From assembly GCA_032718475.1 (NCBI GenBank), contig JAUCBJ010005497.1:1-53547 (forward strand): a DNA stretch of 53,547 nt, in the 5' to 3' direction. The position numbers and the translations under genes were made by a program. This document shows, in pieces, positions 7,141-41,948 of the stretch; position 1 is the stretch's first letter, and every line of letters starts with the position of its first letter. The notes beneath the pieces are model-generated. The model worked only from the letters and a program-made list of their open reading frames with translations, had not been told where the DNA came from and did no database searches. This DNA is from Nemertoderma westbladi (lineage: Eukaryota; Animalia; Xenacoelomorpha).

Positions 7141-7196
7141 TGTGGTTGTTGTCGATAATCGATTACCACATGATGTATCAAAACACTCATTTTATA

Positions 7197-8187: not shown

Positions 8188-8259
8188 CTCCCCGACCGGG
8201 AATTGAACCCGGGTCTTGCATGTGACAGACGCAGATACTAACCACTATACTATCGAGGA
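8188..8259 (-). tRNA. tRNA-Asp (GTC)
   Basis: Reverse complement TCCTCGATAGTATAGTGGTTAGTATCTGCGTCTGTCACATGCAAGACCCGGGTTCAATTCCCGGTCGGGGAG folds into a full cloverleaf with anticodon loop CT-GTC-AC. A and B boxes are present, and a T5 Pol III terminator lies about 10 nt downstream. Confidence 0.93.
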
Positions 8260-13265: not shown

Positions 13266-16200
13266 ACAGTAGGCCTACAGCAGTACCGGTACCGGTACTA
13301 AAATACAGAAATGCCTGCGCTTTATACCTACATCTGTACATACAATACAGCAAAATAGTGCTATATATACTAATACCGGTACTGATAGCCTGAGAGAACA
13401 GCAGTAGAGAAACCGGTAGCTTGGAACCTAACATTAGATTTTTGGAGGACATAAAAAATAAAAAAATAAGGACAAAAAAAGGATTTAAACGGACAATAAA
13501 AATTATTGCGTTTATCAAATTTGTGCTACTTGTACAGTATTTGTCACTTTCTACTTGCATTGACACATATCCATAATGCCCTAATCAACAAGGTACGATA
13601 CATACTTCAGTGTCATATTCGTGATCAGCAATTTGTAAGATACATAAAAAGTATACATCCTCCCCGACCGGGAATTGAACCCGGGTCTTGCATGTGACAG
13701 ACGCAGATACTAACCACTATACTATCGAGGAGTGTGAAGGACGAGGGAAGAAATGGCTGAATGGATAGTTAGTTCTGAAAGAGGACAATTACCGAAAGGT
13801 ACCGAAAGTTATGCGAAAGCTATCGAAAAGTAAAAGCGAAAGGGTGAAAGTGATAGGGGGTACATTCACTGATAGCGGGTACATTTCGCACTTTCAGCGT
13901 CCAATATCATTCATAAACAAAAAAGATATGAGCTCAAATTCAAATAATTGCCGTTTCATTTCAAATTAACCTTCGCGAAATATACATTTGCTAATACAGT
14001 ACAGCAGTAACGCAAAGGGTTGTTGGTAATCAAGGGTATCCAGTCACTACGTCATTGTTGTAATCACTATGGTTGGTTGAAAATGTAATAATTACAGTAA
14101 TTTACACTTTATCGCTAACACATAGATGTGTAATATTCCGAACTAGCACTGAAGAGCGATGTTAATTATACAAAGAGGTCATACGGGTATTTATTTTTTA
14201 TGTGTAAAATAATTCCACATAATGGCCCTTTCACTGTTCTCTGTCTCTCCCTTTATTGACATTTCATCCCCACTTGCTCGTTGGAAACCTCCGAGGATTA
14301 TTACGTCACCGTTGATTTATTGGATGTGTGGTGCAGCCTACTTAACGTACAAATGGCCAACTGTGCAGCACGCTGGAGAATCACAACGGAGGAGAGCTGA
14401 TCATTTTCCAACGTAAAACAAATATAGCATTAGGCCTACTGCTTCATAGCCGTAATCAATTCGAATTTCATGTCTGTCAGAATGTAAAATTGGATAAATA
14501 TGTTTTTTATGGCATTTACTGTATGTCCTACGTAATTTTTACAATCTCAACAATTTTGTACAGTAATTGTGCCCGAGTTAGTGTAACTAGCCCGAGTCAA
14601 TCCACGGTGTAAAAATATCTCGAGATCGCACCGATTAATCTTTGTCAGGTTTATAAAAAAAAGTATACAGATACAGCACAACTAGTGTAGATATATATTC
14701 CGTATCCATTGAAATACACGTTCGTGGGGCCTTCGCGCAGCACGGGGCTCAGTTATGAGATACAAATTAAAATTGAGCAATTCTATCACAAAATCGGTAT
14801 TTAAGAAATTAACCAAACCGCAAATAAATCATAAGAGGGAAAGTTGCTCGCTTTCAACCCCCCCTTAATCTGCACCCCAACACAAAGGCACACAGAGGAT
14901 TGTTGACAGGCAGGTATTAATAGAAAATGTGTGTTTTAAAAGTAATATATTTTAGGTGTGGAGGGGACCCAATTTGTAAGACATATTATAACTTAATTAC
15001 CTTATGCCGTTTTAGTATTGATACTGAAATATTAATTTACCATGTCGATGTCTCAACAAAATTATTTAGCTATATTTAATCTAAAGAATCTCCATTAAAT
15101 ACTCAGCCAATCATTTTGCGAGATAAACATTATAAGCAAGCTGTCTTACTCCTGGGGCCTAACACTATTGCATGTCCTACATAATTACACCTTACTGGAA
15201 TAGTGGTGAGGTTGAACTGGTCGGACTGATTCCTAGCCCGACAAAACACACCGGACTTGTTCTAGCACATATCTGACGTTTCAGATAAATCAGTGATTGC
15301 ATTTTGAGATATTTCGCCCTCTAGCGGCAGACTAGAGACTGCAGACGGATGAGCCTACTTGAATGACACAGTTAATGGCCTATTACAAATATGCCAAGTT
15401 TCAGCTAGAACGGGTTTAAAGCAAAGAAAATGTGAGGATACTTAATGTTTAGATATGTAGCCCTCTAGCGAGAGATTGAGGATTTGATGGTGTCTGGAAG
15501 TCCCTAAAAAAACTAAACTTATGGTCTTATTGATGCTTACAGTACTAATTTTCGACTCGACAGCTTTAAATCCGACGAAGTTCTAAGTCAAAATCGTGTA
15601 GCGACTTTGATGACATACAGTACCATTATTGAATGAACTATTTTGCCATAATTCACCTACCACCCTAAGAGATAGCGTCAGTTCGCAAAGGCTCCGCCAA
15701 CTTCGTGGCTCGGACCCCATACACCATGCTATATAAATGTATTCGATCGATATACAATCATATATTTAATCGGCTAGGTGATGTCAAATTATCATTCTGC
15801 AATTTCGTAATTTTACAGTACAGCAGTACCGTACCGGTAGGCCTATGTCATTATACTTCGGAGTCTCTAGCCGATCCCCAATTAAATGTCTTAACTTTTC
15901 AATTTCGTAAAAGATAGACTTTATGATTTTCTACAAGCAACCAAAATTTTCAGCTCTGGAAAATGAGGCGTTCCCGAGAAATTTAACATTTTCTAAAAAC
16001 CACATAATATGTCGTAGCTGACGTCAGACTGCATGATTTTTCACCAAACTTTACAAATTTTTTAAAATTTCCCTCTACTATTTACCTACTAAGTTTGGTT
16101 CAATTCCGAACTAGCGATGCCGAGAAATTCGCGTTCAAACATTTATCAGATAGACGGACGGACAGACGGACATTCCCCATTTGCCCTATATATGAACCGT

Positions 16201-16467: not shown

Positions 16468-17623
16468 TGTAAAAGCTTTTGCGGACATAACAAGTCATTT
16501 TTCCCACAATGCGCAGTGTAGGTGCTTTTGCGGACATAACAAGTCATTTTTGCCGCAATGCGCATAATACTCTAAAAGATTGGAGCTCAGATGACGAAAT
16601 CTGTCAGCTGATTTCCTGTAGATGTGGAACCTCTTTGTTCTGCCTATTCAGCCAATCAGAGCGATTTTCAGTTTATGTTGGACAGGGGCCTATGGAAACC
16701 CGCAATGCATTGCGGTCTTTGTTTACCTTTCTGAGCCAGATAACCGGCTTGGAATTATTCTGTACTTCTGTTGTGGAAGTTTCAGACTTTGGCCTAAACA
16801 TCAGAAACATCAGATGGCTTTGATTACAAGAACTTAAAACTATTAACGCATCACACCGCAATTCAACATTGCTGCACATGGAACACTGCATAAGTAACAC
16901 ATACTGACTGTTCACCGCATTATTTGCTTCTGTTATTAATTGGTGTTATGTTAATTGTATATTGCTGATATATTTGGAGAATACCGATGAATAATCATAA
17001 AACCCCCAATCTTCTTGATTACTGAAGGTGAGAGGAACAGGTTTACCGGTAGCAACTGCGACTTACATTATAGTGGTTTTTGTGTGAATTAAATGCTATT
17101 TCATAATCCCTACATGTGTCAGTTGCGATCCTCCTTATATATGATCAAATTCAGTGACGGTCGGCAGATCAGTGCGAAGTAGTGTGAAGTAGTGTGAAGT
17201 CGTGTGAAGTCGTGTGAAGTAGTGTGAAGGTTAATAAAGCATCTCCTAAAGAATGCGCTTTTTACGAAACTCTTTGGCCATCTAGTTGTGATTAGTATAA
17301 GTCATAACTCTGTTTTTATACTTAAAGCGCCACGTCCTAAAGGAACTGTTAATATTTCCCTGAAAGTAAATATATTGTCAGAGATTACATAGTAACGATC
17401 AATCGAATAATACAGTAGGTCTACACCGCAATCACTATCAAAGCATCCGAATCCAGTCTCCCTTAACTGTGGGTGAATGATCGCGCACAGACTGGCTTCG
17501 GCTGATGTAACTTCAGTACATTAAATAATCGATATAGGCTAAAGTCGATTTACAAACTAGAGGACAACTAAAATTGGCAGGTTAAACTGCTAAAGGTCTA
17601 AAAGCGCAAACATTAATAGTTTT
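16468..17623 (+). repeat. 5' LTR of element 1 (minimum extent alignable with the 3' LTR)
   Basis: Shared blocks with 33182-34458, e.g. CCAATCAGAGCGATTTT, AGCGCCACGTCCTAAAGGAACTGTTAATATTTCCC, GGCAGGTTAAACTGCTAAAGGTCT; true CA end and PBS not identified. Confidence 0.8.
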
Positions 17624-19165: not shown

Positions 19166-19415
19166 TACCGGTATTTATGGTAGGCTTATTATATTTATTT
19201 ATATAAATTTAGGCTGAAATTAAATACCGGTATTCTGAGACTAATCCTAGTCTATAATAATACTTATATATACTATAGGTGTATACCGGTATTTACGGTA
19301 GGCTTATTATATTTATTTATATAAATTTAGGCTGAAATTATATACCGGTATTCTGTGACTAATCCTAGTCTGTAATAATACTTATATATATATACTATAA
19401 GTGTATACCGGTATT
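19166..19415 (+). repeat. About 118-bp tandem duplication in the 5' leader of element 1
   Basis: TACCGGTATTTA.GGTAGGCTTATTATATTTATTTATATAAATTTAGGCTGAAATTA... occurs twice. Confidence 0.85.
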
Positions 19416-19552
19416 TTAATATATTATATATATATCACGTTACACTGAGTAACGGTATCGGTAATTAATTACTAGGCTTACAGTTGATACTGAATTACTA
19501 GACTTGCTTTAACTGTCATTATAGTAGTAGGCATTTAACTGCAATATAAATC

Positions 19553-22500
19553 ATGGCTGACACAAAGCAAACACTGTCAGATAGTCTCCTAGAAAGAACA
19601 GTCTGTGACTCAGATAAGAGTATAGAACATCTGAGACAGAAGTCCAAGTCCCCTACATCGTCCCTCATCCCTACAGTAGTAGTATCAGACCCTAGGCTAG
19701 TAAAGCACCATAGATTTATCATAGGCACTAGGGCTCAAGTCAAGTGGGACCAAGAGGCAGCTGTTAAACAGCAGCAGCACCCGAACCAGGAACTTATTTC
19801 TCATCGGCCCGATAACTCCAGTAGTTCAGATACTGTAGAGTTGACACCCGAGATCGGAGCAAGGATGACAGAAGCAGTTTATCCAGATCCACTTCTAATT
19901 CTTCCTGGAGCCGTACTCACTAGAGTATTGATCACTGTGGAAGAACATCAAATCGATTGGGCAAGAAGTAAGCGATCGACCAGGGACAGTTATGCGGGAT
20001 ACACGATGGAGGAACTGAAGTCTATTGTCGAGACGCAATGGAACTTCCCCGGACCTGGACTCCCGTTTAACTTATCGGAAGCTGCCTGGGAGGACTTATA
20101 CAGGATGGGAGTAGTAAGGGACACTCGAGATCCAGCTGTGTGGAAGAGGTCGGCAGCAGGATATGTCCAGGGATTCTTCAGCTCTTTGGAGCGCTTAGAG
20201 GAACACCTGTTTCAACAACGTCAAGGACCTCAAGAGCAGGGAGAGCTGCTTTATCAAGTGCGAGAACGAATTTTACGGATCAGACTAATCCTTTCGGCCT
20301 TTGAAGAAGCTTCGAAGAGAAGCCAAGACACGTCGTTGCAAGTGGCTGCAAAAACTTGGTTCCAACGGGTGAGTCTTAAAGTCCAGGGAATGACACAATG
20401 GAAAGCTCAACTAACAGAGCGCATGACCCACGGATAATCAACAGACGCTACCTTTTCTCAGGTGGAAAGCGAAGCTATATCCGAAAAACCTCAGAAGAAG
20501 GATGCTATTGACATCTATATGTCGGACTATCAACGATTTATAGGTGACAAAGAGTTAAGGAGACGGCTAGCTGGACTTCACCCTAATAGTGAGGGAGCCA
20601 AATTTGTGTTAGACTCGTAAGATGCGGTAATATTAGCCGTGGAGCAGGCTAAATTTGATGAAAGCATCCTCATGGCAATGGATCAAGAAGAACAGTTAAA
20701 GAAACGGCAAATAGAAGACCGAAGGTCAGCAGCAGCGGCAGAATCTGAGAGGAAGGCATCAGCTGCAGAGGTTGAAAGAAAGGCGACAGCAGCAGCAGCA
20801 GCGGCAGAATCTGAGAGGAAGGCGTTAGCTGCAGAGGCTGAAAGAAAAGCGGCAGCAGCAGCGGCAGAATCTGAGAGGAAGGCGTTAGCTGCAGAGGCTG
20901 AAAGAAAGGCGGCAGTGGCAGAAGCAGAATTGAAGGCTTCTGAAACGACTACCCAACTAGAACTGGAGAACCTTCAGGCGAAACAAGATTACTTGAAGAA
21001 ACAGAGAACAGCTACTCAGATGCAGCTGCTAAGTCGATCTACTCCCAGGAATCAGGGATTTACATCCTCTGATGAAGGCGATACAACAGATCCTGAAGGT
21101 AGAGGACATAAATCTCGTTCAAGCGGACGTAGAAGAGGGCCACACCGGCAGAAATTGCCTAATTTGCCTCCAGCTGTGAGAAGGCAACTAGCTAGTGTAG
21201 ATTTAAGTAATCCTGAGCCTACAGACCAAATTATTAGAGTAGAAAGACTCCCTACTATAGTAGATGAGCCTGAAATAATTAGGCCTGTTCTTGAAGCCAC
21301 TCCCTCTGTAATAGAAAATCTAAATCGCCTGCTCGGTCAGCTAGAAGAACAACAAAAACGTTCTTCCCAGCAGGTCCGAGAGTTGGAAGGGACTGTTCAG
21401 CAATTAAAGGGAACAGTAAGAGAGAGTAGGTTAGAGTTGCAAGAAGTGCAGCAGAGTATCGCTTTAGAACGCGATAAATTAGTAAATATACAAATGGGTA
21501 TACCACCACCCCCTGTAACAATGTGTCAACCTGTTAGGTCTGAAGTATTTCATGCGCAAGGTGTGGAGCCTACACGCATCTATACTGCTAGTGAAGTAGA
21601 AACTCCTATAGTAAACCCTATTAAGGGTAATTATAAACCTGTTGATAATGATATTCCATATAGACCTGATCATAATCCGAGAAATTTATATACCGATAAC
21701 TCGATACTAAATAATACGATGGCCCAAGAAAGTTTTACGCGTCAAATGGCTAGAACCGAAGCCCGTCAAGCGGTAAAGGTGGGAGAGATCATCAAGTTCA
21801 ATGGAGATGAGATGAAATGGTTACCTTTTAATGAATATTATAAAGATAACATACAGAACTCTGTACTATCTAACGGAGAGAAACTTAGATTCCTCATCGA
21901 GTGCTTGGAAGGACCTCCCAAGTTAATGGCGTTAAAGTTTATTGGACATCCAGATGGATTGAGACAAGTTTGGGATACACTAAACATCAGGTATGGTAAT
22001 AGGACTAACATAGCTAGGTATTTGTATGTGAAATCAGTAGCGCCCCGGAAGTTACTTAGTAGCGGGATTATCGAGTTCTCCGATGAGATCCAGGAGATCT
22101 GTAGACAGCTAGATTGGTTAGGTAAGTCTCAGGAATATCAGAGTTCCATGGTTGTTGGAGCTGCAGCATCTACTTTGCCAAAGGGTGGAGTAGGCACTCG
22201 TTGGGACAAAAAGGTTCTTTATATGATGGACCAGCAACAAAGGGACCCTACCATGGCTGATCTCATGTCATTCTTAAATGGAGAGGTAAGATTACAGTTC
22301 CTAAAGCAGTCCCGAGAGAAGACACTGGAAAACAATGTGAGTGAAAAACCCATTTCTAGGAGAAAGGTAACACCAGTGTGTTATACAGACGACGGCGAAA
22401 GCCAGACCTCCCACGAGGAGAACAGCGGGAAAGACACCGAAAGATCTTACTATGTCAACAAAATACGGAAAGACGTAAGTAAATCTAAGTCTCGAACCAG

Positions 22501-25500
22501 TGACAGTAGAGAACAGGTAACAACAACTCCTACGTCTCCTAAGAGAATTCATGGAAGAAAGCCCGAAGAAAGAACAAGTGTGCACAACACCACACAGGTT
22601 AAAGTAAGTAACATCAAACCCAAATGTGCATTGTGCGACGGGCCCCATCGCTTGAGTGGATGTGATGAATTCTTGAAGAAATCCCTAAAGGATAGACGTG
22701 ATGTCATGTGGGATAAGCGGTTGTGTTATAATGTTCTCAGACAAGGACACCAATGGCGGACCTGTTACTCAGACGCGTGGTGTGCTAAGTGCGGCGCGAA
22801 ATATCATATCTTGCTGCACACAGAATTTGACAGAACACGCACGAGTCAGGTGAGTGAGCCTGAACTACATGTCCAATTCAGTGATGTGAACAACACTGAC
22901 CACAGCTCTGAGATGGAAGGATTCTATACGGACGAATTCTCCGACGAAAACGAATCCTGTTATATGATAAACACCGCAGTGTATCGAGCACTTACGTATG
23001 AGACTGAAACAAGCGAAGAAGATCCTCGACTGACTATTCCGGACCGGCAACCATCTTGGAAAGCGCCGACTTCCAACGTCAGAATCCGGGAATTCCCTGA
23101 CCGCAACCATTACAAATGTACGCGGGAAGAACAAGAGTAGGTTGGTACTTCACTGGACCTTCCCGTAGAACACTAATGGAAAGACTCCCTCAGGAGAGGA
23201 TACATCAGGTGAGTGAATGGGAAGAGGAAATCAGTGAGGGAGAAACCACAACTGAGGGAACACCATACTCCTCAGATAATGACGATATTACTCAATTATA
23301 CGATGAGGAAAACACAATCGACCTCCTCACCGAAAATGAAACTTGGATAAACCAAGTAAACCTGTGCCATCTCATCAATCATGGCGGACAATTCACCTAC
23401 AATGACGAATTAAACGAAGTGATTGATCGATATAATAATAAAATTCGCGATGAACACGCCGTACGATTCTTTACTCAAGAAGCCGTAGAGCCTAATTCCT
23501 ACGACAAGGCCTTATCCATCGAGGAAGAGAGAGCCAAGCAGATTCAGGAAACGCCTACCTGTTTTCTGAAAGATGAAGGTCGCTATGAGATTGGTCTTCC
23601 GTTCCGACGGCGAGAGCCCAACTTTATAAATAACCGACCTTTAGCGGAAAAGAGAATCGCGCAACTACATCGGCGTCTTACGGCCAATGTTTCAGCTAGG
23701 GAAATGTACAAAACCCAGCTGAAGAAATTCATCGATAAGGGATATACGGAGCGAGTACCGGAAGAAACACCCATAACTGAGAGAACGTATTATCTAACAC
23801 ATCATTACGTTCCCAAACCCGGTAAACCCAACAAAGTCCGGGTAGTGTTTGACGGCTCCGCCCTTTACATGGGCCAATCCCTGAACTCCGAATTGTTGCC
23901 GGGACCCAACATACTCCAATCCTTGTTGGGAATACTATTAAGATTACGGCAATATTCTATCGCTTTCGCTTCGGATATAAAAGGCATGTTCTTACAATTC
24001 AAGGCGCTGGATAGGGATTGAGACAGCCTACGATTTCTGTGGTAGCCTGAAGGAGACCTCAACCTAAAACCGGTGGAGTACTGGATGACCATCCAGGCTT
24101 TCGGGATCATCTCGAGCCCCTCGAACGCTTGTTCAGTAGTGCGTACCACTGCTGATGACAACCGAGACGCCTTCTCTAAAGCGGTTATCGACAACATCAA
24201 ACGGGATATATACATGGACAACAATTTAAAGTCCCTCCCATCAGTGGAAGAAGCCATTGATGTTGCCAAGGGAACGGTAGAGTGCTTGCAACGCGGTGGA
24301 TTTCGACTAACAAAATTCACTAGTAACTCCCGTGAGTTTCTGGAATCGATCCCGGTAGAAGAGCGAGGTATTAAAGATCTGGACCTCATCAAGGATGATC
24401 TTCTGGAAACCAAGACGCTTGGTTTAAAATGGGACACGGAGAGAGATATCTTGTTTTTCCAGTTAAAACAGCGAGATAATCCAGTTAGAACTAAACCGAT
24501 TTGTCTAAGTATCCTGAGCACTTATTTCGATCCATTGGGATTTATTAGTCCAGTTATATTGGTTGCTCGGAGCCTAGTGCAACAAATGTGGCTTGAAAAC
24601 CACTCGTGGGATGATCCACTTAAGGGAGAACTACTAAAGAAGTGGATGAAATGGGAAGATTCTCTACCGTCCATCGAGAACTTTACGATTTCCCGTTCAT
24701 ATTTTGGTCACGTTCTCCCCACGTATTCCTATCAACTCCATGTGTTTGGAGACGCCAGCGATATGGGAATAGGTATAGTAGCCTACCTGAGGGTTGAAAC
24801 TCCAGATGGAATTAAAGTTGCCTTGGTCACCTCTAAGGCCTTGATAAACAACAAACTACGAGTTCCTCGAGCGGAGTTAAAGGCGGCTCTATACGCTACA
24901 GCCATCGGCCGGAATGTAACAGAACAGATCGACTATCCACTGGAGAAAACTGTCTATTGGACTGATGCTTTACTCGTTTTGGAGTATATAACCAATGAAG
25001 TCTGTCAGTTCAGCGTCTTCGTTACCAACAGAGTAGCCATTATACTTAGTCGCTCTAATGTAGATCAATGGAGACATTGCCCTGGGACGATTAATCCAGC
25101 CGACATCGCCTCTGGAGGAGCAACCCCGCAAGAACTGATAGATACTCCAGACTGGTTAGGTGGACCCGACTTCCTAAGTAAAGAAGAGGATGAATGGCCT
25201 CCCCATCTCACCATGGCTGAGATTAGACAAGCCAAGGGAGCGGAGAAAGTCAAACCTAAAACCCGGACGAGTAAATCAAAGTTATTTAAACCCGTGATAG
25301 ATCTATCTGTACTACACATTTCCAGGGACGACGCTGTGGATCTAAACTCCCCCACCACGAACAGATCTGTTATAGACATCAGAGAAAGAGACTGGAAATC
25401 TGGAACACCAGATGTCTCGCAAGGACTCTCACCTCTCCTGCAGAGAGCAATAAATCACTATAGCTCCTGGAATCGGCTTTGTAAGGCCGTCGTGTATTTG

Positions 25501-27122
25501 AAGCGATGCTTCCATCATCACTATTCCAGGACGAAGATCGCTAGTGATACCGCTCCACTGACATCCGAGCAGGTCCATGCTATTAAAGATCTTCCCACAT
25601 ACAAACTGTCGGATAGGTTTCTGACAGAGAAGATCAGTTACCAAGAGCATGAAGCAGCCAATAAGCAGATACTGAGACTCCTGCAATGCTATGAAGATTC
25701 CGATAAGTATTTCCTGTTGTTGAGAAATCCACAGATGCGCTTAAGGGATCGTTTCTCTAGCACAATGATAGATGGGTTAAGATAGGAGGGTTAAGATAGA
25801 AGGGATGATAGATAGGAGGGAGATTAACTAATGCTCCATTGTCCTTTGACACTAAATTTCCCATACTCATTAGAAATCTTGAAATACAAGTCAAGATGAT
25901 TGTAGATGTTCACAGTAGGCTTTACCATGCTGGTAGAGAACGAGTTCTTAGCGAAATTCGAACTCGCTATTATTTCCATAAACCCCGTAGAGCTCTGAAC
26001 CAAGTTCTTAGGAACTGTATACCCTGTAGGAAAGCATTCAGTAGGCCTTTAACACAGCGAGAGGCAGAATTACCTTGGGAATGAGTAAGCTTCTATGAAC
26101 CACCCTTTACTAATACTGGTGTGGATTTATTTGGCCCTATTGAAGTATATCGTGCTAGGACTATAGTCAAGCGATGGTGTGTCATCTTTGTCTGTATGAC
26201 TTGTAGAGCGATCCATCTAGATATGGTGAACGATCTATCTACCAACAGCTTCATACTGAGTTTATGCCGGCAGATCGCTCGCTTTGGAACTAGCAACACG
26301 ATGAGATCTGATAAGGGAACGAACTTCATTGGCGCCAATAATGAGATCAAAGCTTACGTTAAAGATTGGAACCAAAGACAGGTGGACGATCAGCTAAGGG
26401 TAACAGCATCTAGCTGGACCTTGAACGCCGCCGACACCCCTTGGTGGGGAGGAAGTTGGGAGAGATTAATAAGGAGCGTGAAGACAGCATTTCACTTTAT
26501 AGTGCCTTGCCGCGCGTATCTCACTGACGAACTTTTGCGGACGTTAATGGAAGAAATCGCCGCCTATCTTAACGAGAGACCGCTTATGCCAGTCTCATCG
26601 AGTCCCGACTCCCTAGAAGCGCTAACACCCGCGCATTTCCTACTGAAGAAACCTGTAGCCATGCTCCCACAATCGGAAATCAATGACGGAGACGAATACT
26701 GCCAACAAACTTGGCAACTCATACAGTTATTATCCCGTCGTTTCGCTGACCATTTCGAAAAACATTATTTGCCTACGCTACAACTTCGAACCAAGTGGTT
26801 TGCGCAGCAAGAAAACGTCAGCGCTGGAGACATGGTCCTTATTGTGGAATCAGATCTTCCACGTAAGCGGTGGCAGACAGGTCGTATCATCGAGACTCAT
26901 ATATCCGATGATGGTTTAGTGCTATCGGTAGAACTCGTCGTCATGCGACGTAACTTTAAGAAACCTGGAATTGTATTTGAAACACAACAACTCAATCACC
27001 CAGTTGGTCGTTTATGTTTACTGGAAAGAGACAGAGAACTATCCGGAAACTATGGAAGGCAAGATACTCTTCCCACGACCACCTCCCTAATCCAACAAAC
27101 ATCTAGGGACTCCCCAACGTAA
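19553..27122 (+). pseudogene. Disrupted BEL/Pao gag-pol of element 1
   Basis: Gag IIKFNGDEMKW..F, knuckles CALCDGPH.LSGC and CAKCGAKYHILLH, KVRVVFDGSA, SDIKGMFLQ, RT YMDN (YMDD mutated), RNase H LHVFGDAS, IN HAG..CIPC, GVDLFGP, SDKGTNF, WERLIRSVK. In-frame stops at 20435, 20618, 23098, 24019, 24043 and 26082; protease deleted with a frameshift near 23000-23100; second frameshift near 25790-25830. Confidence 0.93.
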
Positions 27123-27645
27123 CAGCATCTGGAGTGGGTGTGTGACTATATTATTTTATATTTTTTTTATTATTTTATATTTATGTATGTATTATTATGT
27201 AATTTTATTATAATCGTTTTCTTTAATTTTATTTAGTAGAATATTATTTTAGCGATTATTTAGTAGATTAGTGCAATATATATATTCGTGTTTATTACTT
27301 AATTACTTAGCATTATATTTAGTGTAACGGCGAGAAATAATTATTTTTCTCTTTCCTTACTGTCCGTATCATATTATAAATACGTGACTACAGTAAGATG
27401 AAATGTCCGTACTTATTAAAGTACAATACCGCCCCTACTATACTCAAGTAGTATTGGTAAGTAGAGTATTAGGAATGCAAAGTTCAGATCCTCGTGTTTC
27501 GGCTAAACCAAGCTCTGGGTAGACCTTGGAATCGACTTGCCTCTTCTCACTGACATTGCTTCTTGCAATATTGCTCTCATACCGTATATTAAATAATACA
27601 TATAGTAGAATGATGTCCATTTAACAGTAGCGTAAAACGCAAAAT

Positions 27646-28057
27646 AAATCTGTTAAACCCTTTGACCATCTGCAATTCTAGTCGATTAAGATATCGCGGC
27701 ACCCACCGATATACTTGAAAGACAAAATTCTAGAATCAGTGGTTAACGTCCCCAGACATGTTCTGGAATAAATCGGTGCCCATCTTAAATATTAAATATT
27801 TAATAAATATTTATAAAATCTATTAAAACAAATGTTATAATAGAGTAAAAAGCAGACAAAGAAACTCTAAGGAGTTTGTAAACCAAGAAAATCTATAAAT
27901 CCAAAATCTGTTAAAATTCAGATCCTTTAAAATTCTAGTCGATTAAGATATCGTAGCACTTACCGATACTCTTAAAAGGACAAATTTCCTAGAATTAAGG
28001 ATCCTAGTCCCCAGACATGTTCTGGAATAAAATTGTGTCTATTTAATATTAAATAAT
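27646..28057 (+). ncRNA. Two tandem (257-bp period) copies of a putative structured RNA element
   Basis: Nested stems with different sequence but preserved pairing in the two copies (see findings). Confidence 0.5.
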
Positions 28058-28850
28058 AAAATTTACGGGAATAAATTTAAATTCATATCCTCTCATGAAT
28101 TTGATAAATTGTCATTTTATACAATTTATAACATTCCCAAAATTCCATTAATTAATAGATCATGGGAGCGGAGATTCACCCTATTATATATTAGTGTGAG
28201 AGAATCTCCAATGTATAGTCAATAGCCAATAAAATTCATAAAATCATGTATAAAGGGGAATATTGACAATTAAAGAATTACTATTAAATAGCATCCCAGA
28301 TCTGTATGCATGAGAATTACCCTAATTCTACTGCTAGCTTTCCATAATGTCACCATAGCAACAACCACGCTAGAATTAGAAGCGAGTTAAAAGAACAATA
28401 GAAAGCTTGCCCCATTGAATAGCATACGGAATAAATAGCACACTGCTAGTATCCAGGGATACATAATAATAACGTGGCATTCTGGAAGGCACTTGACTAA
28501 CGGACAAATGGCCCGAATGTGTACAATTTGTGACAGTTGTGTGGAATTTGTGCATTTATAGGTGAATGTTACTACTAAAGTGTGTTTACAGTAGCAAGTC
28601 GCAGTTGTGAAAGTTGCCCTACCTCTATAGCAAGAACCTGAAGTAATTCTAAGCCCTTGGGACGGACAGTGGAGTGACTCGCACTGGTTATTGTTGTCGT
28701 TGTGTAGCTACTACGTTGGCGAGAGGCACAGCGACGACAGTACATCGGCGCTGAGGATCTTGCGCTGTCCGGGGGCATTGAGGGGGAGGCAGCGACGACC
28801 GCTAGCCTAAATATAATTAATTATAATATCGATAAACTCATATAGCAGCT

Positions 28851-29684
28851 ATGACTGAGTTGATAGAAGATGATCTTGGTATCAGGGAGCGATATACCCT
28901 ACCATTGCAAGCGTTTGTTGATAGTTTAATAAGCGGCGATGCTAGTCAACCCACTACGGAGGATGATGGCTGTTATATCGAACCGCCAATGTCAAAGGAA
29001 CAGCTCACGCGTGAATTGGACTATAGAAAATTCACTGCTCGCTATACGCATCGTAATGGTACGTATATGGACTTCTTAACTACTGGTCATCCTATCGATT
29101 TACACGATACGGACGATGTAGACACTGAAAGGGAAATGGTCCTATTTAAATATCATACCCAGCGGAGTTGGAACGATAAACTGAGAATCGAACATGAGAA
29201 TTCTATTCGAAACCGACTCGAAAGAGAAGACGTTGAAGAGCCGGATAAACGCAGTGACTTCAATGAATATTTGGAATTCTTGAGAGAAACATATCTCAAT
29301 GTAGCCAGTCAACAAAATCTAGAAACTCGATATCCTCAAGGTATACATCATGACCCTATGATAGAACTCAAACGACTCTATTTCACTATGATGTATCTTA
29401 CCGCCGATCGTCCACTACCTGTTATCCCGGATAGTTTTGAACAAATGGAAGAATATTGCAAAACTGGAGAACGTTCACCCGCGTTTCCTCTACAGGACGT
29501 ACGTCTTTGGTATTATTGTGACGAATGCCCTAGACCCAACCAACAAATTGAAAGACATAAACATCCGCGGAGACGTTGCGCTAAACACAGTTTTACGCGT
29601 TATACTTACGGGAGTTTCGAGCGAAACCTGTTCGATGTATCACCTAAGATCGCTCGTCTTAAACGATCACTGAATAAACCATGA
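28851..29684 (+). CDS. Accessory ORF A of element 1, 277 aa, unknown function, C-terminal Cys/His cluster (CDEC..HKH..CAKH)
   Basis: Open frame with ATG; its stop overlaps the next start (ATGA at 29681-29684). Confidence 0.7.
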   Translation: MTELIEDDLGIRERYTLPLQAFVDSLISGDASQPTTEDDGCYIEPPMSKEQLTRELDYRKFTARYTHRNGTYMDFLTTGHPIDLHDTDDVDTEREMVLFKYHTQRSWNDKLRIEHENSIRNRLEREDVEEPDKRSDFNEYLEFLRETYLNVASQQNLETRYPQGIHHDPMIELKRLYFTMMYLTADRPLPVIPDSFEQMEEYCKTGERSPAFPLQDVRLWYYCDECPRPNQQIERHKHPRRRCAKHSFTRYTYGSFERNLFDVSPKIARLKRSLNKP

Positions 29685-32600
29685 TCAGAGTTCCGGAATA
29701 CTCGGTCAGGCCTCCTCATAACCTAGTGAGACCTCAAACTCTCGATCCTAACAGTATCACTGATCCTCCCGAACTATATTCCCTGTTCAAAGACTTAGTG
29801 TTACCCGAACAACTAATCGGTGGTGCTCCGGTAGTGGGTTCGTTAGACATCCGCCCATCCTACTTAGCCGGATTGGGACGCGGGCAACTAATATCGCCCT
29901 TTGATCCTTACAATCGTCCAGGATTAAACCCGATTCAACCCGCCACGGAAGTCGAGGAGAGCATTATAAGAAACGCTTTAGACGCCATTCGACAGAAAAT
30001 CGGAAAAGGAACACAAGATTGTTTAGAGAAACGTAAACTACACCAACAAGTCCAATCGGTGAAGGAGTTAGCCTTGCCACAGTTCGATAGGGAAATCCAA
30101 AACCTCGAGGAAGACATAGAGCTTGGACGCACGTATTCTCTACAAGAATTTTTAGAAGAACGCTTACAAAGACAAGCGGAAGAAAATCTAATCGAAGAGA
30201 AACACACGAAACTGGAAGAAAGAGAAGAAGCCGCTTTAGCCCAACCTGAAGCTCAAATCCTCATGACCGACCTCTACTCTAAAACCGTTCGTCATCCCTC
30301 GATGATTACACATTTCGGGGACAAGCTCTTCGCGACGATACAGCCTCAACCGGTTGATATCAGTACAGGATCGCAAAATCTTATCGCTGACGCCCCTATG
30401 TTACAGCGTCCGCCGATCGAGGCCGCTCGTGTTGATGGTATCCTCGTTGAACCTCCGGACAATCGAGCGGATCTTGTCCGTCGTATGGTACACGATGTCA
30501 ACATACGCGCTAGACCTTTACAGAACTCGTTTTATGGGATTAAAGACCACCCTTATTACGTTAATCTGACTCAATATTATATGGTAAAACCAGAGGACCC
30601 GACACATAATTTAAAGTTTCTACCACTAATAAATCCTCTAGACATTGTTGAACTCGAACAATTGCAGAAACATCTGGATCAGTTAGTAAAGGTAAACTCA
30701 TTTAGAAAACCATATAACATTTCTCGAATCGAGAAAGATATAGAACCTCCTTATAATCTCGATGGATTTATTAAAACTCGATTAGTCCATTGGAATCTAG
30801 ATGTATTATTTGAAGAGGAGAAAATACCAAGATATGGAAATGTGGAGACGTATACCACTCGGCACATGAAGTATAGTGATCTCCCTGACGCTAACCAATG
30901 CGCCACCTTGTGGCATCCAGTAGGGATGACCCTAGAGAACGCCACCAAGGAGTGGAATGAAACTCTTAATGTTATTGAGATGTATGGAGTTGTCACCTAC
31001 GATAATGAAGGTAGCGTTCCGGTCGGAGAACTAGGAACTACGCGCATGATCCACATACGCGGATTAGCTGGTTCTACCCACGTGTTTACTCGAGCGTGTT
31101 CCGACGTGATGGATTATTCTTTTGAAACTCTCACCGAAACACAAAAGAATCTCCGACATGGACAATTCGAACTCGCGCAGCGTTACGTCATTGACACCGA
31201 ACGCAAACCGGCCATGGGCATCGATGGATCGATGTTACCCCAGCCCGTACTCGAGATGTTGTTCAACGAAAGAATCCTTAAAATCGGCTCAGCTGTTTAT
31301 GGAGATCTCCAAAACGACTTTCGGAATATGGAGAACATTCCATACCCTTTCGTTGATACACAGCTGATTGCTCCCTGGGCAGAAGGCCGAGGTTTCTTCC
31401 GCACCATGTATGCTAATACGTCTAGCAACATTACAAAGGTGCAACGAACTTCCATCGGACATCTTGCCTTTCAGGAATACGGATGGAATTTCAAAGTCGG
31501 AAATCCCATTAACTATCAACAAGTATACGGAGACCATTATTCTCGATTATACTTTGATGGACCATTGACCGCACCGGGCGCCGTGTATAGCTTCATTAGT
31601 GTTCCACTCCGTCCCTCCTTAGCTATCTACACGATCTTTGAAAACACCGCACTTGCCGGTTGGCTAGCCGATGTGTGCAGTCGTACTATACGCGCCCATC
31701 CATTAATACTTGGGACCAAACTCGCTAAGCTAGATGAACATAATAAATTCATCCGTTTCGAATGTTTCCGGCGATTTTTAACCCCGTTCCGCAACGTGGA
31801 TAGCCAATTTAAAGACCGCGCTTTGACCAAACTCAGCCTAAGAATCTCAGCTGCAGAGAAGTTGGATAGCGCTGGATTCGCCATTTTCAAAGAGATTTGT
31901 ATATCGAACTTACACTCCTCTGTTATACAAAGACCTCGAATCCCCACAGGTTATTCTGTCGTGGAAATTCAGACAATAGGTCCACCTGAAGAGACAGACA
32001 CGCCCACCTCAGCTATGCACTTGGAAGACGAACCAATATGTTTAGAATCTGAGGAGATTCAGCCTATCACGCCCCGGAACAGCGACAACGATTACATCAT
32101 AGAATGGTATCAAGGTCCACAGTGTCTCACTGCGTACGATTATCGACATGCCAACTATGTTTCTAGGCAACGTTGTCGGTTATGCGCATCGAGAGACCAC
32201 GATACGCCCATGGACACCAACGTCCGCTGTTCCTATTTCCAAGAACAACCGACTATGGAAATTTATTGCGCATATTGCAGACTCAATAACTTGCATATTT
32301 TTGCAGTTTGCCCTCAATTTATGACTCAATGTCACCATTGTCAACTAAAGGGACATGCCAGTTTCGACTGCCCTTTTAATCACGATTTGGAAAGCGTAGA
32401 TGAAATGATCACACTAGGTTACATCAGAGCTTGGGAAGCGAACGCTGATTTACATTGTGATTCGCGCCATCGCTATTATTCCGGACGCGCTTACGAAGGA
32501 GTTTATGCGTTCCATCCTTATCTATTCGCTTCGGTTGAACAGAAATCACGCATATCAAGTTACGAGCTACTGAAGCGCGTCGGAGAATGTATTTCAACCA

Positions 32601-33103
32601 AATTCGTACGCAAATTTCTCAGGAGTGTTAATCCTAGCGACCTTCATTCCTATAACTTAATCAATTATATCCGTCAAGATCCAGACTATGGAGACTTGTT
32701 TGTTAACTCACACCCCGAGTTACAGGAAGTGTATCGACGGCCTTACGAATACCGAGCCCGCGAACGCGAGTTGGAAAGGACCATTAAACCCCGGAGGTTT
32801 CTAACTGCCTATGGTCCACCCACGGCCCTCGTTCAGACCACTCGTAAAGGACCCGTAAGAGCGGCTGTCTTGAAACGAGCTCTCAAAGCCGTTAGACCCC
32901 TCTCACCTGACGTTGACGTCAATCAACCCGGTACTTCGACTGGCGGATACACCGACCATAATCCTACACCCCCTGATGCAATCATATTGCACCCTTCACC
33001 CAGGAGTTATAGCCCTCCTTGTAAAGTGGCTCGCCCCAAAGAGAAAAGGACTCTGGCTAGCTTTAAGAAACTGCGTAAACGCCGTCCGCGCAAGAAAGAC
33101 TAA
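29681..33103 (+). CDS. Accessory ORF B of element 1, 1140 aa: coiled coil + DEDDy (WRN/RNase D/EXD-like) 3'-5' exonuclease-like domain + 3 CCHC zinc knuckles + basic C-terminal tail
   Basis: ExoI VVTYDNEG (D441, E443); LPQPVLEMLFNERILKIGSAVYGD (D542); FVDTQLIA; TSIGHLA...YG; ExoIII-like PLRPSLAIYTIFE (Y650, E654); knuckles at aa 832-897 including the canonical CHHCQLKGHASFDC; ends KKLRKRRPRKKD. Confidence 0.8.
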   Translation: MIRVPEYSVRPPHNLVRPQTLDPNSITDPPELYSLFKDLVLPEQLIGGAPVVGSLDIRPSYLAGLGRGQLISPFDPYNRPGLNPIQPATEVEESIIRNALDAIRQKIGKGTQDCLEKRKLHQQVQSVKELALPQFDREIQNLEEDIELGRTYSLQEFLEERLQRQAEENLIEEKHTKLEEREEAALAQPEAQILMTDLYSKTVRHPSMITHFGDKLFATIQPQPVDISTGSQNLIADAPMLQRPPIEAARVDGILVEPPDNRADLVRRMVHDVNIRARPLQNSFYGIKDHPYYVNLTQYYMVKPEDPTHNLKFLPLINPLDIVELEQLQKHLDQLVKVNSFRKPYNISRIEKDIEPPYNLDGFIKTRLVHWNLDVLFEEEKIPRYGNVETYTTRHMKYSDLPDANQCATLWHPVGMTLENATKEWNETLNVIEMYGVVTYDNEGSVPVGELGTTRMIHIRGLAGSTHVFTRACSDVMDYSFETLTETQKNLRHGQFELAQRYVIDTERKPAMGIDGSMLPQPVLEMLFNERILKIGSAVYGDLQNDFRNMENIPYPFVDTQLIAPWAEGRGFFRTMYANTSSNITKVQRTSIGHLAFQEYGWNFKVGNPINYQQVYGDHYSRLYFDGPLTAPGAVYSFISVPLRPSLAIYTIFENTALAGWLADVCSRTIRAHPLILGTKLAKLDEHNKFIRFECFRRFLTPFRNVDSQFKDRALTKLSLRISAAEKLDSAGFAIFKEICISNLHSSVIQRPRIPTGYSVVEIQTIGPPEETDTPTSAMHLEDEPICLESEEIQPITPRNSDNDYIIEWYQGPQCLTAYDYRHANYVSRQRCRLCASRDHDTPMDTNVRCSYFQEQPTMEIYCAYCRLNNLHIFAVCPQFMTQCHHCQLKGHASFDCPFNHDLESVDEMITLGYIRAWEANADLHCDSRHRYYSGRAYEGVYAFHPYLFASVEQKSRISSYELLKRVGECISTKFVRKFLRSVNPSDLHSYNLINYIRQDPDYGDLFVNSHPELQEVYRRPYEYRARERELERTIKPRRFLTAYGPPTALVQTTRKGPVRAAVLKRALKAVRPLSPDVDVNQPGTSTGGYTDHNPTPPDAIILHPSPRSYSPPCKVARPKEKRTLASFKKLRKRRPRKKD

Positions 33104-33181: not shown

Positions 33182-34458
33182 TGTAAAAGCTTCTGTGGGA
33201 TCTAGCTGGCCCTTTTGCTTTGCGGTCCGAGTTCCCCCCAGGCGCTGGAATACTCTAAAAGGGCTTTCTAACTATATATATATTCCCCTCGCCCGCAAGG
33301 TGCCGTAATAGGTGTTTTAACGGACATAAAAGTCATTCTTCTAGATTTGTACTTTAGAGGACATAATCCGCAATCTTGTGACACGATAAGCTAGATATTC
33401 TTGAAAACAGTGTCGCTACCATGACGACGGCTAACAGCTGATATTGCCACGTCGACATTTCTTTGTTTCTTTGTTCTCTCGTGGTTCGGTTGACCAATCA
33501 GAGCGATTTTTTCTGTAGATGTGGAGCTTTGGGCAGATCATGCTAGAGCGTTCAGTCTTACTGTTTTTCTTGATACTGTTGTGTTGTTGGTATCTAGGCC
33601 AGGAACACCGGCTCTAGAGTTAACTTGTTTCAGACTTTTAGAAGAAACATTAGTAGGCTTAAGATTATAGAGCGTATAACTGTTATCAACACAAATCAAA
33701 TCAACTCATATATCACATATCGGTCCATATCAGTACATTGTCATATCATATCTTAACCTACCGTCTTAATGCTATTTACTGTTGTGTTTTGGTTGAATAT
33801 TATTTGGAGAATATTTATAAAGAACCCAAATTTCCCAATTTTCTTGATACACTACAGGTTAGAGAGAGACGGGTTATATATAGCGATTGCGACTTATATT
33901 GTTGTGGTTTGTAGTGAATTTAATGCTATTTGATAAGCACTACATTGGTCCGTTGCTGTTCTCTCTATATATGATAAAATTCATTGACGGTCGGCAAATT
34001 AGTGAGCAGTATTGTGTGTTACCGGTAGTGTGCATGATTGTGACTGATAACTAAGCATTTCCTAAAGAATGCGCCTCATACGTGAATCATAAGCCTTACC
34101 GACTTACCGTTGTGATTAGTGTAAGTCATATCTCTGTTTACTTAGATAGAGCGCCACGTCCTAAAGGAACTGTTAATATTTCCCGAAAGTGAATAATATT
34201 AGTCAGAAATTATTTATTAACGATCAATCGAATAATACAGTAGGTTTCACTGCAATAATAATCTAAGCCCTCAGAATCCAGTCTCCCGGGAATATCCAGC
34301 GGGTGAATGGACGCGCACTAGGCTGGCTTCTGCTAATGTTGTGTTTATTGGTATTAAATATTTGTCTTCTTCTAAAGTATATTTATAAACCAAAAGACAT
34401 ATAAATTTTGGCAGGTTAAACTGCTAAAGGTCTTCCAAAAGCGCGTACACATAGTTTT
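33182..34458 (+). repeat. 3' LTR of element 1 (diverged from the 5' LTR, apparently truncated)
   Basis: Follows the PPT and starts TGTAAAAGCTT; similarity to the 5' LTR ends near 34458; no CA plus CTAAC TSD found. Confidence 0.8.
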
Positions 34459-35626: not shown

Positions 35627-35698
35627 CTCCCCGACCGGGAATTGAACCCGGGTCTTGCATGTGACAGACGCAGATACTAACCACTATACTATCGAGGA
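35627..35698 (-). tRNA. tRNA-Asp (GTC)
   Basis: Identical 72-nt sequence to the other two copies although the flanks have diverged; T4 terminator. Confidence 0.93.
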
Positions 35699-38589: not shown

Positions 38590-39201
38590 TGTTACGGTAT
38601 ATGGCGCTGTATCCACATATATTAGTCATTATGCAGTATGCAATATTAGTCGTTATACTGTACACAATATTAGTCCGTTATACTGTATGTAATATTAGTC
38701 CGTTGTGCAGCATAATATTTTAGATAAGGCATAATAACGCAATGATATTTAGATAGAGAAATCGAAACACCCATATATTTGAATCCATCCATTTTGTATA
38801 GTATGTAGCCCTACCTACGTAATTTTGTATTAGGATATATGTAGATAGTTCCAGGGTAGCGAGTTTATTCGGACCCTGGATTTTGTGCTTGCTGATATTA
38901 GTTTGATAGGGCTAGCATATAGGGACGCTGTCCTGGCCATTCAGCAGCCAGAGACGTGAACCATTACCATATATGGTAATAATTCGAGGTTTGGGCAGGC
39001 AATAGGACTACAATCCGGCCTCCTTATTGGATTAACTGCTTCCAGGTTGGTCTAATGCTAGCGCGGACTGGAGAGCCAATAGGAGAGCGATTGAGTCACC
39101 CTATTGCATCACCCCATCCGGATCACCTATAAATTGGCGGTGTGCCGGTAGAGCCTCACATGACACCTCACATGATCTGCTATCATCTTTGTACTTGCTG
39201 A
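38590..39201 (+). repeat. 5' LTR of element 2 (minimum extent; true 3' end lies further right)
   Basis: Matches 52936-53547 with no difference found by eye. Confidence 0.93.
39076..39133 (+). promoter_or_regulatory. Candidate LTR promoter (CCAAT box about 50 bp upstream of TATAAA)
   Basis: CCAAT at about 39076 and TATAAA at 39128-39133 in U3 position; repeated in the 3' LTR. Confidence 0.5.
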
Positions 39202-41948
39202 GCTGTCCCTATTCAATTTTGACGGATATTTTAGTGTATTTTCTGCAATTTGCTAATTTTGATTAATTTCTTGGAATGATTTGCTAGTGCGATTACTCTC
39301 GATTGTGTTTCTCAATTAATTCCTTCGATTACTGCTAATTACAACTGAACTATGATTTCTACTTTTTGATTAATGGTTCTATGTGATTCCTTTCTGCGCA
39401 ATAATCCTAAGGGATTTCTGAGACTGTCAGACTTTGTGATTTTGCATGCGCCGCTACGGTAGCTATTAGCATAATGGAGGGCTAAGGTGCCAGTAGGCGG
39501 TGGGCTCATCGGGGGGTTAGCGACGAAGGGAGAGCGGAGGATTCAAAGGCGGGCAACGCTGGCGGGGGTCAACGTTGCGGTCGGGCAATTTGGACTGTGG
39601 GTTGGAGACCGCTCGCTGGTACAGTAATTAGGGGGCTGATGATCCAGGTTTTGTCTCTATTTAGTATTAGGGGGGCAGGAATTGGGTTAGTTAGGAAGCC
39701 TAGATGTACCCGGGAGGGGCCTGCATACCTTACAGTAAGTAAGTAAGTTGCGAGTAAGTAGATTGCGAATTAGTCAATTGCGAATTATTATGTTGCGAAT
39801 TATATAATTGCAGATTGTATAATTGCAAGTTGTACTGTTGTGATCTGTGATTGCTGACGCTGATTGGTGTGTTACTGAAGTGTGCCTGTGATTACGAATG
39901 CTTAGGTAGGCACCCTTTCCCTTTTGATTGATTTCTATTTCTTAGTTACAACAAATAATTACTGATTAGGTCAAAGTAATACGGCATTTTAGGCTATTAC
40001 TAGTGAAACCTGTTGTGTAATAAATTAGAATTACGCATTCTGGAACTCTTAGTAATTAGTGCGCTGTTACATATTTGTGACTGTAATTAATTAGTAAAAT
40101 TAAGAATTAGTACGCAGCATAGCGGAGAGTAGCTAAGGTAATAATTTAGAGTACCGTAAACTATTCACGCTAAGCGGTTATTTGCATTAGCGGGCAATAA
40201 ACTAGATCGCAGTAGTCAGTACGCAAGACACTAGTAAGTTGCTGGCCTAAAGCCAGCTGCAGGCAAGTTTAGACCCAGAGCGGTATCACCCACGAAAGAC
40301 ATTGTACTGTACCAATTTTGATTATTTTAAATATTCTCGCATTCACACATTCCGTCTGTCCGTTGGGGAACCCTCAGTATTCGCGATTAGAAAAGACGTA
40401 GGCAATTAGCGTACTTCAACAGTAGTAAAATTAGGCGTAAGAATATACTCTGAGTGCAAAGCCCCTCGCACTCGTCTTAAGTAAGCTTAGGGAGCCGACT
40501 CGGGTTTATTGTTTTGGTTATTCCCGCGTGGCTCATAGATTCGAACAGTTAGCTCTCTATCGAGCGATCGGTAGAGAAAGGAACAAGCGATTTTGCTGGA
40601 GTTGTGTAAAATTAGTAAATATATTAGCGGACGGCAGATTAGCGCCATCTAACGGTAAGTAGCGGTTTTGTATTTAGCAACCCTTACAATTTAGTAATAT
40701 CACGCTCCTGAGCCCCTTTACTTAACAGTAGAGCAGTCTTTGTGTCTTATTGGTTAGACGAGAACTTATTAGGTTGGCAGAGAGGTATACGGGTATTTGT
40801 CTGTTCAACAGTTCTGCTGTTAGTATAGGTGTCGCGGTTGTTTAACAGTAAGGTATGTTTTGTTTGCTGTAGGCTGTAGCGTACAGTAGAACATTGAGTA
40901 TATTCTTTTAGGCTGTTAGTTTAGATTACTGTATTCACTGGCCGCGTACAATAGTACAGTAGTACATTAGGCTGATTGTTGTTACTGCGTACGGTAGAAG
41001 GGACATTTGTTTTGCCGTACCACATACAGTATCATTAGGCTGTTAGGTTGGTGTACTGTTTTACTTACTGTACTGCATACAGTGGATGTACGGTAGTGCG
41101 TTTTGCTAATTGCGAATACAGCAGTTCCTTAGGCCTTAGGGCAAATTGTAATTAGTAAGTTTTTTGAAAATTTTAGCTAGGTTTGCGAGAATTCAGTTTC
41201 GGTCAAAATTATTTTGTAAAATTCTAGAGTTTTGTACCGGTATGTTAGGTAACCGCTTAGTTATTTTATACCATCTGGAGATACATGGCAAGACGGAACT
41301 TCTGAGTTTGGGGTTCGTGTGGGTCTGCGGGTTCGGTTTGCAATCAGCGAAGGGACTGAATCTTTGGACGCGGACGTGGAATCTCACAGCAAACAAGGTT
41401 AGTTGTTCTGTTGGCACCATTGTGTTTGTGGAAGCACTAAGCAGTAAAAAATTATCGGTTGTTTAACTGCGAAGCTGAACTCAATTTATTAGTTAGGTTA
41501 TTTAGGTTTAGCCGGCCATGGTTTTTTGAATCGCTCAAGTTAGAGAGAGAGATAGAGAGAGTCGCAACCCGAAGATGTAGCCACGCGCTAGTGGATACAT
41601 ATAATATTTGAAATTAAAATTACGTTGATTAGAGCTATATATAAAATTAGAAATATTCGGGTGGCAAGTTTATTTTGAATATTTTGTATTAGATTCAAAG
41701 TTATTTTGTGCTATACCGGTATTTAATGCTATATAATAGCTATATAATAATATTTTGTTTAAATATTGTGCTAGTATTTGCTATAACTATATACCCCATT
41801 AAATTCACAATATTGCATTGCGAATTTATTTGACATTTTGGACCAACTGATATTAGACAAATAATTTGACCGTATTTCGGTTAAATTATAATTATATCTC
41901 GAACCTTTGCGAGATATTTTTGCCGGAAGGCAAAACATTATTTAGACT

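Follow-up and report, generated by a model that had tools for sequence, protein, structure and literature searches.

The window analyzed here, a stretch of 53,547 nucleotides from Nemertoderma westbladi (contig JAUCBJ010005497.1), is animal-type DNA with two Bel/Pao LTR retrotransposons, recognized by DUF1759, Peptidase_A17, and DUF5641. In element 1, DUF1759, the Pao peptidase A17 region, and a DUF5641 after the integrase all scored above cut-off, and 98 relatives of its integrase were found in the protein collection at E ≤ 1e-30, the closest sharing 30–46% identity. On the + strand, element 1 runs from a 5′ LTR-like repeat (16468–17623, end approximate) through a gag-pol region that is split into several ORF pieces in this copy (19553–27122), a 1.7-kb non-coding spacer (27123–28850, longest + strand stop-free frame 64 aa), and cargo ORFs A and B, to a 3′ LTR-like repeat (33182–34458, end approximate) with a purine-rich tract just before it; 6060 nt separate the pol stop from the 3′ LTR. 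Its LTR-like repeats are 67–74% alike, and no target-site duplication of 5–6 nt was found. Despite this divergence, long contigs of the family agree with the spacer at about 95%, and element 1 may be a chimera of two subfamilies. Gag is preceded by a 294-aa ORF without a Pfam match (19553–20437), which follows a leader of about 1.9 kb with a 118-nt tandem duplication at 19166–19416. A candidate central purine tract was dropped, as the motif occurs 15 times in the window.

The second Bel/Pao element (38590–53547) encodes gag-pol as one unbroken ORF of 2766 aa, its LTRs show no difference across the 612 nt visible, and the 2.7 kb that follow pol contain short ORFs and no tandem repeat. Elsewhere, the window holds three tRNA genes of the same sequence on the − strand (anticodon GUC, Asp; 8188–8259, 13660–13731, and 35627–35698), each within a larger repeated block, and a tandem array of 68-nt period (7183–7745).

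Cargo ORF A (28851–29684, + strand) encodes 277 aa and belongs to no family; a word-index search returned no relative, and all of its Atlas hits scored under 0.9. Cargo ORF B (29681–33103, + strand) encodes 1140 aa and likely holds a DEDDy-type 3′-5′ exonuclease domain at about residues 435–660, with candidate catalytic residues D441, E443, D542, and Y650/E654, as well as three Cys/His knuckles (832–898) and a basic C-terminal tail. PF01612 was present in 24 of its 30 Atlas hits (score 0.92). Among 1.84 billion representatives, ORF B has one relative (E 6e-6), in which both the domain, as a weak PF01612, and the knuckle array recur, so that the exonuclease gene proposed for this position in the original prediction is likely right. 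ORF B gave no direct Pfam match, no match in the word-index search, and no significant match in the PDB search; its single-sequence structure model had a pLDDT of 30 and was left unused. The start of ORF B overlaps the stop of ORF A (29681–29684), which suggests coupled termination-reinitiation, and no calicivirus-type motif was found within 200 nt of the overlap. Just 5′ of the ORF A AUG, after a GC-richer stretch, a TATA-like AT run stands about 28 nt before an initiator-like sequence (28805–28850), a pair that we take to be a possible internal promoter.

The spacer between pol and the cargo ORFs of this high-copy element contains two copies of a unit of about 140 nt, 76.8% identical over 155 alignment columns and the sole such pair in the window. 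They start 524 nt downstream of the pol stop, far from any start codon, and lie about 5 kb from the 3′ LTR. The spacing between copies is 257 nt measured at the upper stem, 258 at an invariant 5′ 12-mer, and 259 at the small hairpin. Both are predicted to share one architecture: a 15-bp lower stem (P1), an internal loop, an 11-bp upper stem (P2) closed by a 10-nt apical loop, and then a separate 5-bp hairpin (P3). In copy 1, the long stem spans 27664–27744, where P1 has two small bulges, the internal loop is asymmetric, and P2 has one bulge; the apical loop is at 27697–27706, P3 at 27752–27766, and a predicted pseudoknot 3′ strand at 27775–27782. In copy 2, the long stem spans 27921–28003, with a 3-nt bulge in P1, a kink-turn-like internal loop, and one bulge in P2; the apical loop is at 27954–27963, P3 at 28011–28025, and the predicted pseudoknot 3′ strand at 28035–28041. 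P3 lies within a 25-nt run identical between the copies and is followed directly in both by an identical AAUAAA (27767 and 28026). A further hairpin, P0, is predicted before copy 1 (27620–27657) as an 8-bp stem around a 4-bp stem-loop, with pair probabilities of 0.55–0.99; the invariant 12-mer at the start of both copies (27904–27915 in copy 2) supplies its 3′ strand, and the counterpart of P0 before copy 2 appears in the MFE structure only and is absent from the ensemble.

Other parts of the spacer are also distinctive. A U-rich tract (48–62% U) at 27123–27322 lies immediately 3′ of the pol stop, presumably placed like a stability element against long-3′-UTR decay. A further stable fold occurs on both strands at 27300–27440 (z to −3.4 on + and −4.0 on −), and three adjacent AU-rich hairpins or a three-way junction follow copy 2 immediately at 28063–28140 (z −3.6 to −3.7 in 100-nt windows, −1.96 over 161 nt). 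Imperfect inverted repeats bracket the spacer at 27312–27330/28799–28817 (84%) and 27110–27126/28707–28723 (82%) and could pair across 1.5 kb.

Several lines of evidence indicate that the fold of the repeats is maintained on the sense strand. The MFE z-scores of the whole unit are −2.83 for copy 1 and −2.32 for copy 2 on the + strand, against −1.58 and −2.02 on the − strand, and 100-nt windows over the long stem reach −4.0 and −4.2 on + against −1.2 and −1.9 on −. Of the 33 nested pairs defined in copy 1, 32 can also form in copy 2 in the same columns, the sole broken pair resulting from a bulge displaced by one base; the original prediction that the two copies keep their pairing through sequence change thus holds, the motifs that it quoted were each recovered in place, and its outer stem, inner stem, and small hairpin are present in the MFE folds of both copies. 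Double changes affect four nested pairs, each within the lower half of P1; three single changes via G-U keep pairing on the + strand only. When the seven pseudoknot pairs are added, the 40 named pairs of the two-copy alignment are 96.3% paired over 80 cells with five double changes, a level that was equaled by 12 of 500 column shuffles, while slid partners gave 30–43%; these covariation tests compare two sequences with a structure derived from the same two.

In a helix-specific neutral null, the same number of changes was placed at random in 20,000 trials starting from either copy; like the covariation tests, it depends on these two sequences and on a structure drawn from them. P1 retained a stability matching that in the other copy in 0.19% and 0.11% of trials, the figures for P2 were 1.6% and 1.0%, and with 32 changes spread across the unit, none of the 20,000 trials from either starting copy retained P1, P2, and P3 together. 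A cruder null on the whole-unit MFE was not significant, as 1377 of 3000 copy 1 mutants reached the energy of copy 2; the helix-specific nulls are preferred because random changes in AT-rich RNA stabilize other folds. The changes that did occur are unevenly distributed. Lower P1 changes freely with compensation, while the upper stem, the flanks of the internal loop, and the small hairpin are identical, and identical runs of 25 and 23 nt arose in 1 of 20,000 random placements. A free lower stem below fixed upper parts is what would be expected of a scaffold that displays a site recognized by its sequence.

Natural variation agrees with the fold. The element 1 family is very abundant: in four runs from four studies, 12,161, 2,695, 73, and 171 contigs were placed on 26900–27783, with every one of the 30 bins over the pol end and the spacer covered. 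The variants displayed comprise 40 of 163 substitutions and 12 of 48 indels and, as regards the repeats, bear on copy 1 only. Between 27620 and 27783, four displayed substitutions and three deletions fall on six sites, all six of them unpaired in a segment with 102 of its 164 positions in pairs (P about 0.003, with P0 defined after the variation data had been seen); leaving P0 aside, four of four variable sites are unpaired against 78 of 138 positions paired (about 0.04, calculated by hand). Displayed substitutions number 2.4 per 100 nt in the unit and 5.0 in the upstream spacer. Contigs from copy 2 may sit on copy 1, yet the same differences recur in long contigs of copy 1 from X4 and X5. Taken together, the helix nulls, the covariation, and the position of the variable sites make it very probable that the RNA structure of both copies is real and selected, and to this extent the functional RNA domain originally proposed here stands, with the IRES among its suggested roles disfavored and the ribozyme without support, as discussed below.

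The tertiary features are less firmly established. The apical loop had been described as complementary to the strand after P3, and such pairing is possible in both copies but weaker than claimed. In copy 1, the duplex has 6 bp at −12.4 kcal/mol; in copy 2, it has 6 bp with one bulge, or 4 bp ungapped, at −4.5 kcal/mol, and swapped, non-cognate partners reach −6.4 and −6.8 kcal/mol, as good as copy 2's own. In neutral trials, the copy 2 level was attained from copy 1 in 29% and the copy 1 level from copy 2 in 0.035%. Covariation is weak, amounting to a single double change that appears only within the bulged register common to both copies. In one X5 contig, the sequence of copy 1 gives way beyond P3 to a tail resembling that of copy 2, with two differences from the window in the pseudoknot 3′ strand. 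The pseudoknot is therefore best regarded as plausible on the predicted duplexes. At the internal loop, the standard kink-turn pattern of a 3-nt bulge followed by G.A and A.G pairs fits copy 2 (bulge 27976–27978), whereas the bulge of copy 1 has 2 nt; the pattern occurs in 51 of 5671 control helices, or 89 when 2-nt bulges are allowed. The 3b.3n position is C.C, a type reported to fold in ions (PMC4382518). An ordinary-pairing register fits the internal loop of both copies equally well, so that the possible kink-turn is a lead. A bend at this point would help the apical loop to reach its partner strand.

P3 has a further property. A self-complementary 6-mer, which includes the closing base of the stem and has two G-C pairs only, spans its loop, and in a post hoc test such a 6-mer was present in 12 of 455 natural control hairpins. 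The predicted self-duplex is at −17.8 kcal/mol against −4.4 kcal/mol for the hairpin. We take a self-complementary 6-mer exposed in a hairpin loop to be the mark of DIS/PAL-type dimerization palindromes, a description that P3 fits, and its loop may pair two genomes.

Searches of Rfam, three contig collections, and distant Bel/Pao loci returned no relative of the unit. In the Rfam scan, the copies had no match at the gathering score or up to E 10; the only Rfam match in the spacer, ceN93 (E 1.3, 20.6 of 60 bits), lies outside the repeat and was set aside. A covariance model built from the two copies and run over 81 sources (545,053 bases) found only the two copies in the window. Neither the repeat nor ORF A or ORF B had a blastn/tblastn match in 80 distant Bel/Pao loci (the best 80 of 488, with 35–42% integrase identity), and the second Bel/Pao element had no match to the repeat. 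No comparable tandem repeat occurred in seven candidate spacers or in the element 2 spacer, no Rfam match in 18 loci, and no exact-pattern match in viral_contigs, metagenome_contigs, or genome_contigs; the integrase query had no relative in viral_contigs. Of the 8 ORFs scanned, 4 had long ORFs downstream, which were rejected as cargo because they were gag-pol of neighboring elements. Four loci (L002, L010, L044, and L050) carry a second Bel/Pao gag-pol about 0.7–1.1 kb past the matched integrase, i.e., they are tandem or LTR-sharing Bel/Pao elements. In the literature searched, which takes in few subscription journals, no account was found of a structured RNA in the spacer of Bel/Pao elements. 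By eye, a SECIS was rejected for want of an apical adenine run or stacked quartet and an ENE because the internal loop is not U-rich. The twin element likely works like known retroelement RNA signals and belongs to no described family.

As to function, the repeats are not frameshift or initiation signals, because they are non-coding, lie 524 nt after the pol stop, and are far from start codons. Our tentative reading, held as a possibility by analogy with other retroelements, is that the twin copies are a duplicated, protein-binding signal for nuclear export and packaging of the full-length RNA. In the sense RNA, the long stem of each copy would bend at the internal loop and so allow pairing of the apical loop with the strand after the small hairpin. 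If a second RNA, spliced or started internally, serves for the cargo ORFs, only the full-length RNA would contain the spacer; extra ORFs of LTR retrotransposons are described as typically separate units from spliced RNA (PMC5408684). The invariant internal loop and small hairpin could be contact surfaces for a host export factor or Gag, the self-complementary P3 loop may pair two genomes, and the presence of two copies would raise avidity, as in retroviral CTEs. Retroelement export elements are reported to be mostly non-coding RNA downstream of the coding region (PMC4588558), and what was found here is likewise structured non-coding RNA on the sense strand, downstream of pol. The packaging signal of the original prediction, widened to include export, is the best remaining reading, and position and analogy are what point to it. 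Against it, the repeats are about 5 kb upstream of the 3′ LTR rather than adjoining it as in the MusD element, retroviral packaging signals lie mostly in the 5′ leader, no sequence link and, within what Rfam covers, no Rfam link to known export or packaging elements was found, and the Bel/Pao family as a whole does without this form, as element 2 and the 80 distant loci lack a match.

The most serious competitor, though rather unlikely, is control of RNA decay or RNA ends, whether by a pseudoknot that stalls 5′-3′ decay in the manner of xrRNAs and leaves a stable fragment coding for the cargo, by masking or exposure of the AAUAAA as an internal poly(A) site, or by a shield for an RNA with 6 kb after the pol stop. 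Tandem copies are typical of flaviviral xrRNAs, the identical AAUAAA stands right after P3 in both copies, and the 3′ LTR begins 6060 nt past the pol stop, all of which would suit such a role. Pairing of a loop with a strand 3′ of it is also the topology given for xrRNAs (PMC11499389), but about 28 bp would separate the 5′ end of the long stem from the loop pairing, which hardly suits a tight ring, and Rfam gave no xrRNA match. The poly(A) version is weakened by the seven occurrences of AAUAAA in the spacer parts counted, and a decay fragment would be uncapped and still have 810 nt and 10 AUGs before ORF A. xrRNAs block 5′-3′ decay, while the cargo nuclease is predicted to act 3′-5′, which speaks against decay control here and leaves the suggested link between repeat and nuclease, as self-protection or substrate, unsupported. 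Self-cleavage by ribozymes of an undescribed class is very improbable. Invariant single-stranded linkers, the predicted pseudoknot, and the tandem arrangement would be in keeping with it, and tandem ribozymes occur in retroelements; however, no Rfam ribozyme matched to E 10, the hammerhead core, in the form that we assume for it, is absent, and cleavage in mid-RNA would cut the template of reverse transcription.

An IRES or translation enhancer for the cargo ORFs, in the form of a stripped relative of domains 1-2 of the dicistrovirus intergenic IRES, is improbable. The repeats do sit between two cistrons, their gross order is that of PKII (a long stem with an internal loop and an apical loop that may pair 3′ of a second hairpin), and both internal-loop strands loosely resemble the type 6d motifs at 4 of 6 positions by eye. 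The loops nevertheless contain neither the exact L1.1 motifs of types 6a-c and 6d nor the domain-2 motif of 6d nor an SLV-like loop, as far as motifs stated in the IRES papers go, and closer loop variants could exist in figure or supplement alignments; one L1.1a-like 5-mer occurs in copy 1 only and within a stem. Moreover, frames after either copy reach at most 64 codons, the ORF A frame closes five codons before its AUG, 810 nt and 10 AUGs intervene between copy 2 and ORF A, and the TATA-like and initiator-like pair stands just before ORF A. The absence of a joining frame, the distance, and the missing type 6 motifs together disfavor the originally suggested IRES for the downstream ORFs. An origin at the DNA level or by chance, with a tandem duplication bearing a palindromic p53-type half-site as an enhancer of an internal promoter and the stems as a by-product of AT-rich palindromes, seems equally improbable. 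P3 contains in both copies what we take to be a perfect p53-type half-site, the whole-unit MFE null is not significant, and other spacer parts reach z −3.4 to −4.3. The double changes in the lower stem, the three G-U-type changes, which are valid on one strand only, the helix-specific nulls, and the unpaired variable sites argue against an incidental fold, though; as for p53, each copy has one half-site rather than two adjacent decamers, and half-sites occur 16 times in the window.

A more speculative reading, which we consider improbable, is that the ORF B protein binds the tandem kinked, pseudoknotted RNA and controls the export or survival of the full-length genome, as a Rev/RRE-like pair. 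If true, it would be a self-encoded post-transcriptional switch of a kind so far known from complex retroviruses. Bel/Pao elements are a large group of animal LTR retrotransposons, and no description of how their genomic RNA is selected or exported was found in the literature searched. Being compact, naturally duplicated, and covarying, and present in a family of thousands of copies, the element lends itself to covariation analysis, probing, and reporter tests. Should the repeat partner the cargo nuclease, the DEDDy ORFs, whose function is left open in PMC5408684, would gain a role as well.

Comparison with known systems places the locus near several of them and within none. In the bdelloid LTR retrotransposons Juno and Vesta, the extra ORF after pol (ORF3) likewise encodes a DEDDy (RNase D-like) nuclease, and the part of that source available describes no spacer RNA structure (PMC5408684). 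Unlike Juno and Vesta, the present element is a Bel/Pao, its nuclease shares an ORF of 1140 aa with three Cys/His knuckles, and another ORF stands before it. With the PKII of type 6 intergenic IRESs, the repeats share the predicted order of elements, with an apical loop that may pair 3′ of an inserted hairpin (PMC10516663, PMC10275262); they differ in lacking the loop motifs and a PKI followed by an open frame, in the 810 nt that separate them from the cargo ORF, and in being duplicated. The SAM-I P2 kink-turn is similar in architecture only, with P2 as the loop-bearing helix, whereas copy 1 has a 2-nt bulge, the ordinary register fits both copies, and nothing suggests ligand binding.

Further parallels are the export elements of retroelements. 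The MusD MTE and IAP RTE are also structured non-coding RNAs downstream of pol in LTR retroelements, and the function of the MTE is reported to depend on a kissing loop and a pseudoknot (PMC4588558). The MTE is a single multi-hairpin element of about 400 nt that adjoins the 3′ LTR in a betaretrovirus-like element of the mouse; here, a unit of about 140–165 nt is duplicated, lies 5 kb from the LTR of a Bel/Pao element, and has no sequence link to it. Like type D CTEs and the RSV direct repeats, the twin element is a duplicated unit in non-coding RNA of the unspliced genome, with a long stem and a conserved internal loop (PMC4338338, PMC5035971). Type D CTEs have two near-identical loops, and their high activity is described as needing the duplication (PMC4338338); the two CTE loops share one stem, unlike the separate stems here, and no sequence match was found. 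The direct repeats of RSV act in export and flank the captured src gene (PMC5035971), and the repeats of element 1 likewise lie near cargo, both copies preceding the cargo ORFs where those of RSV stand on either side.
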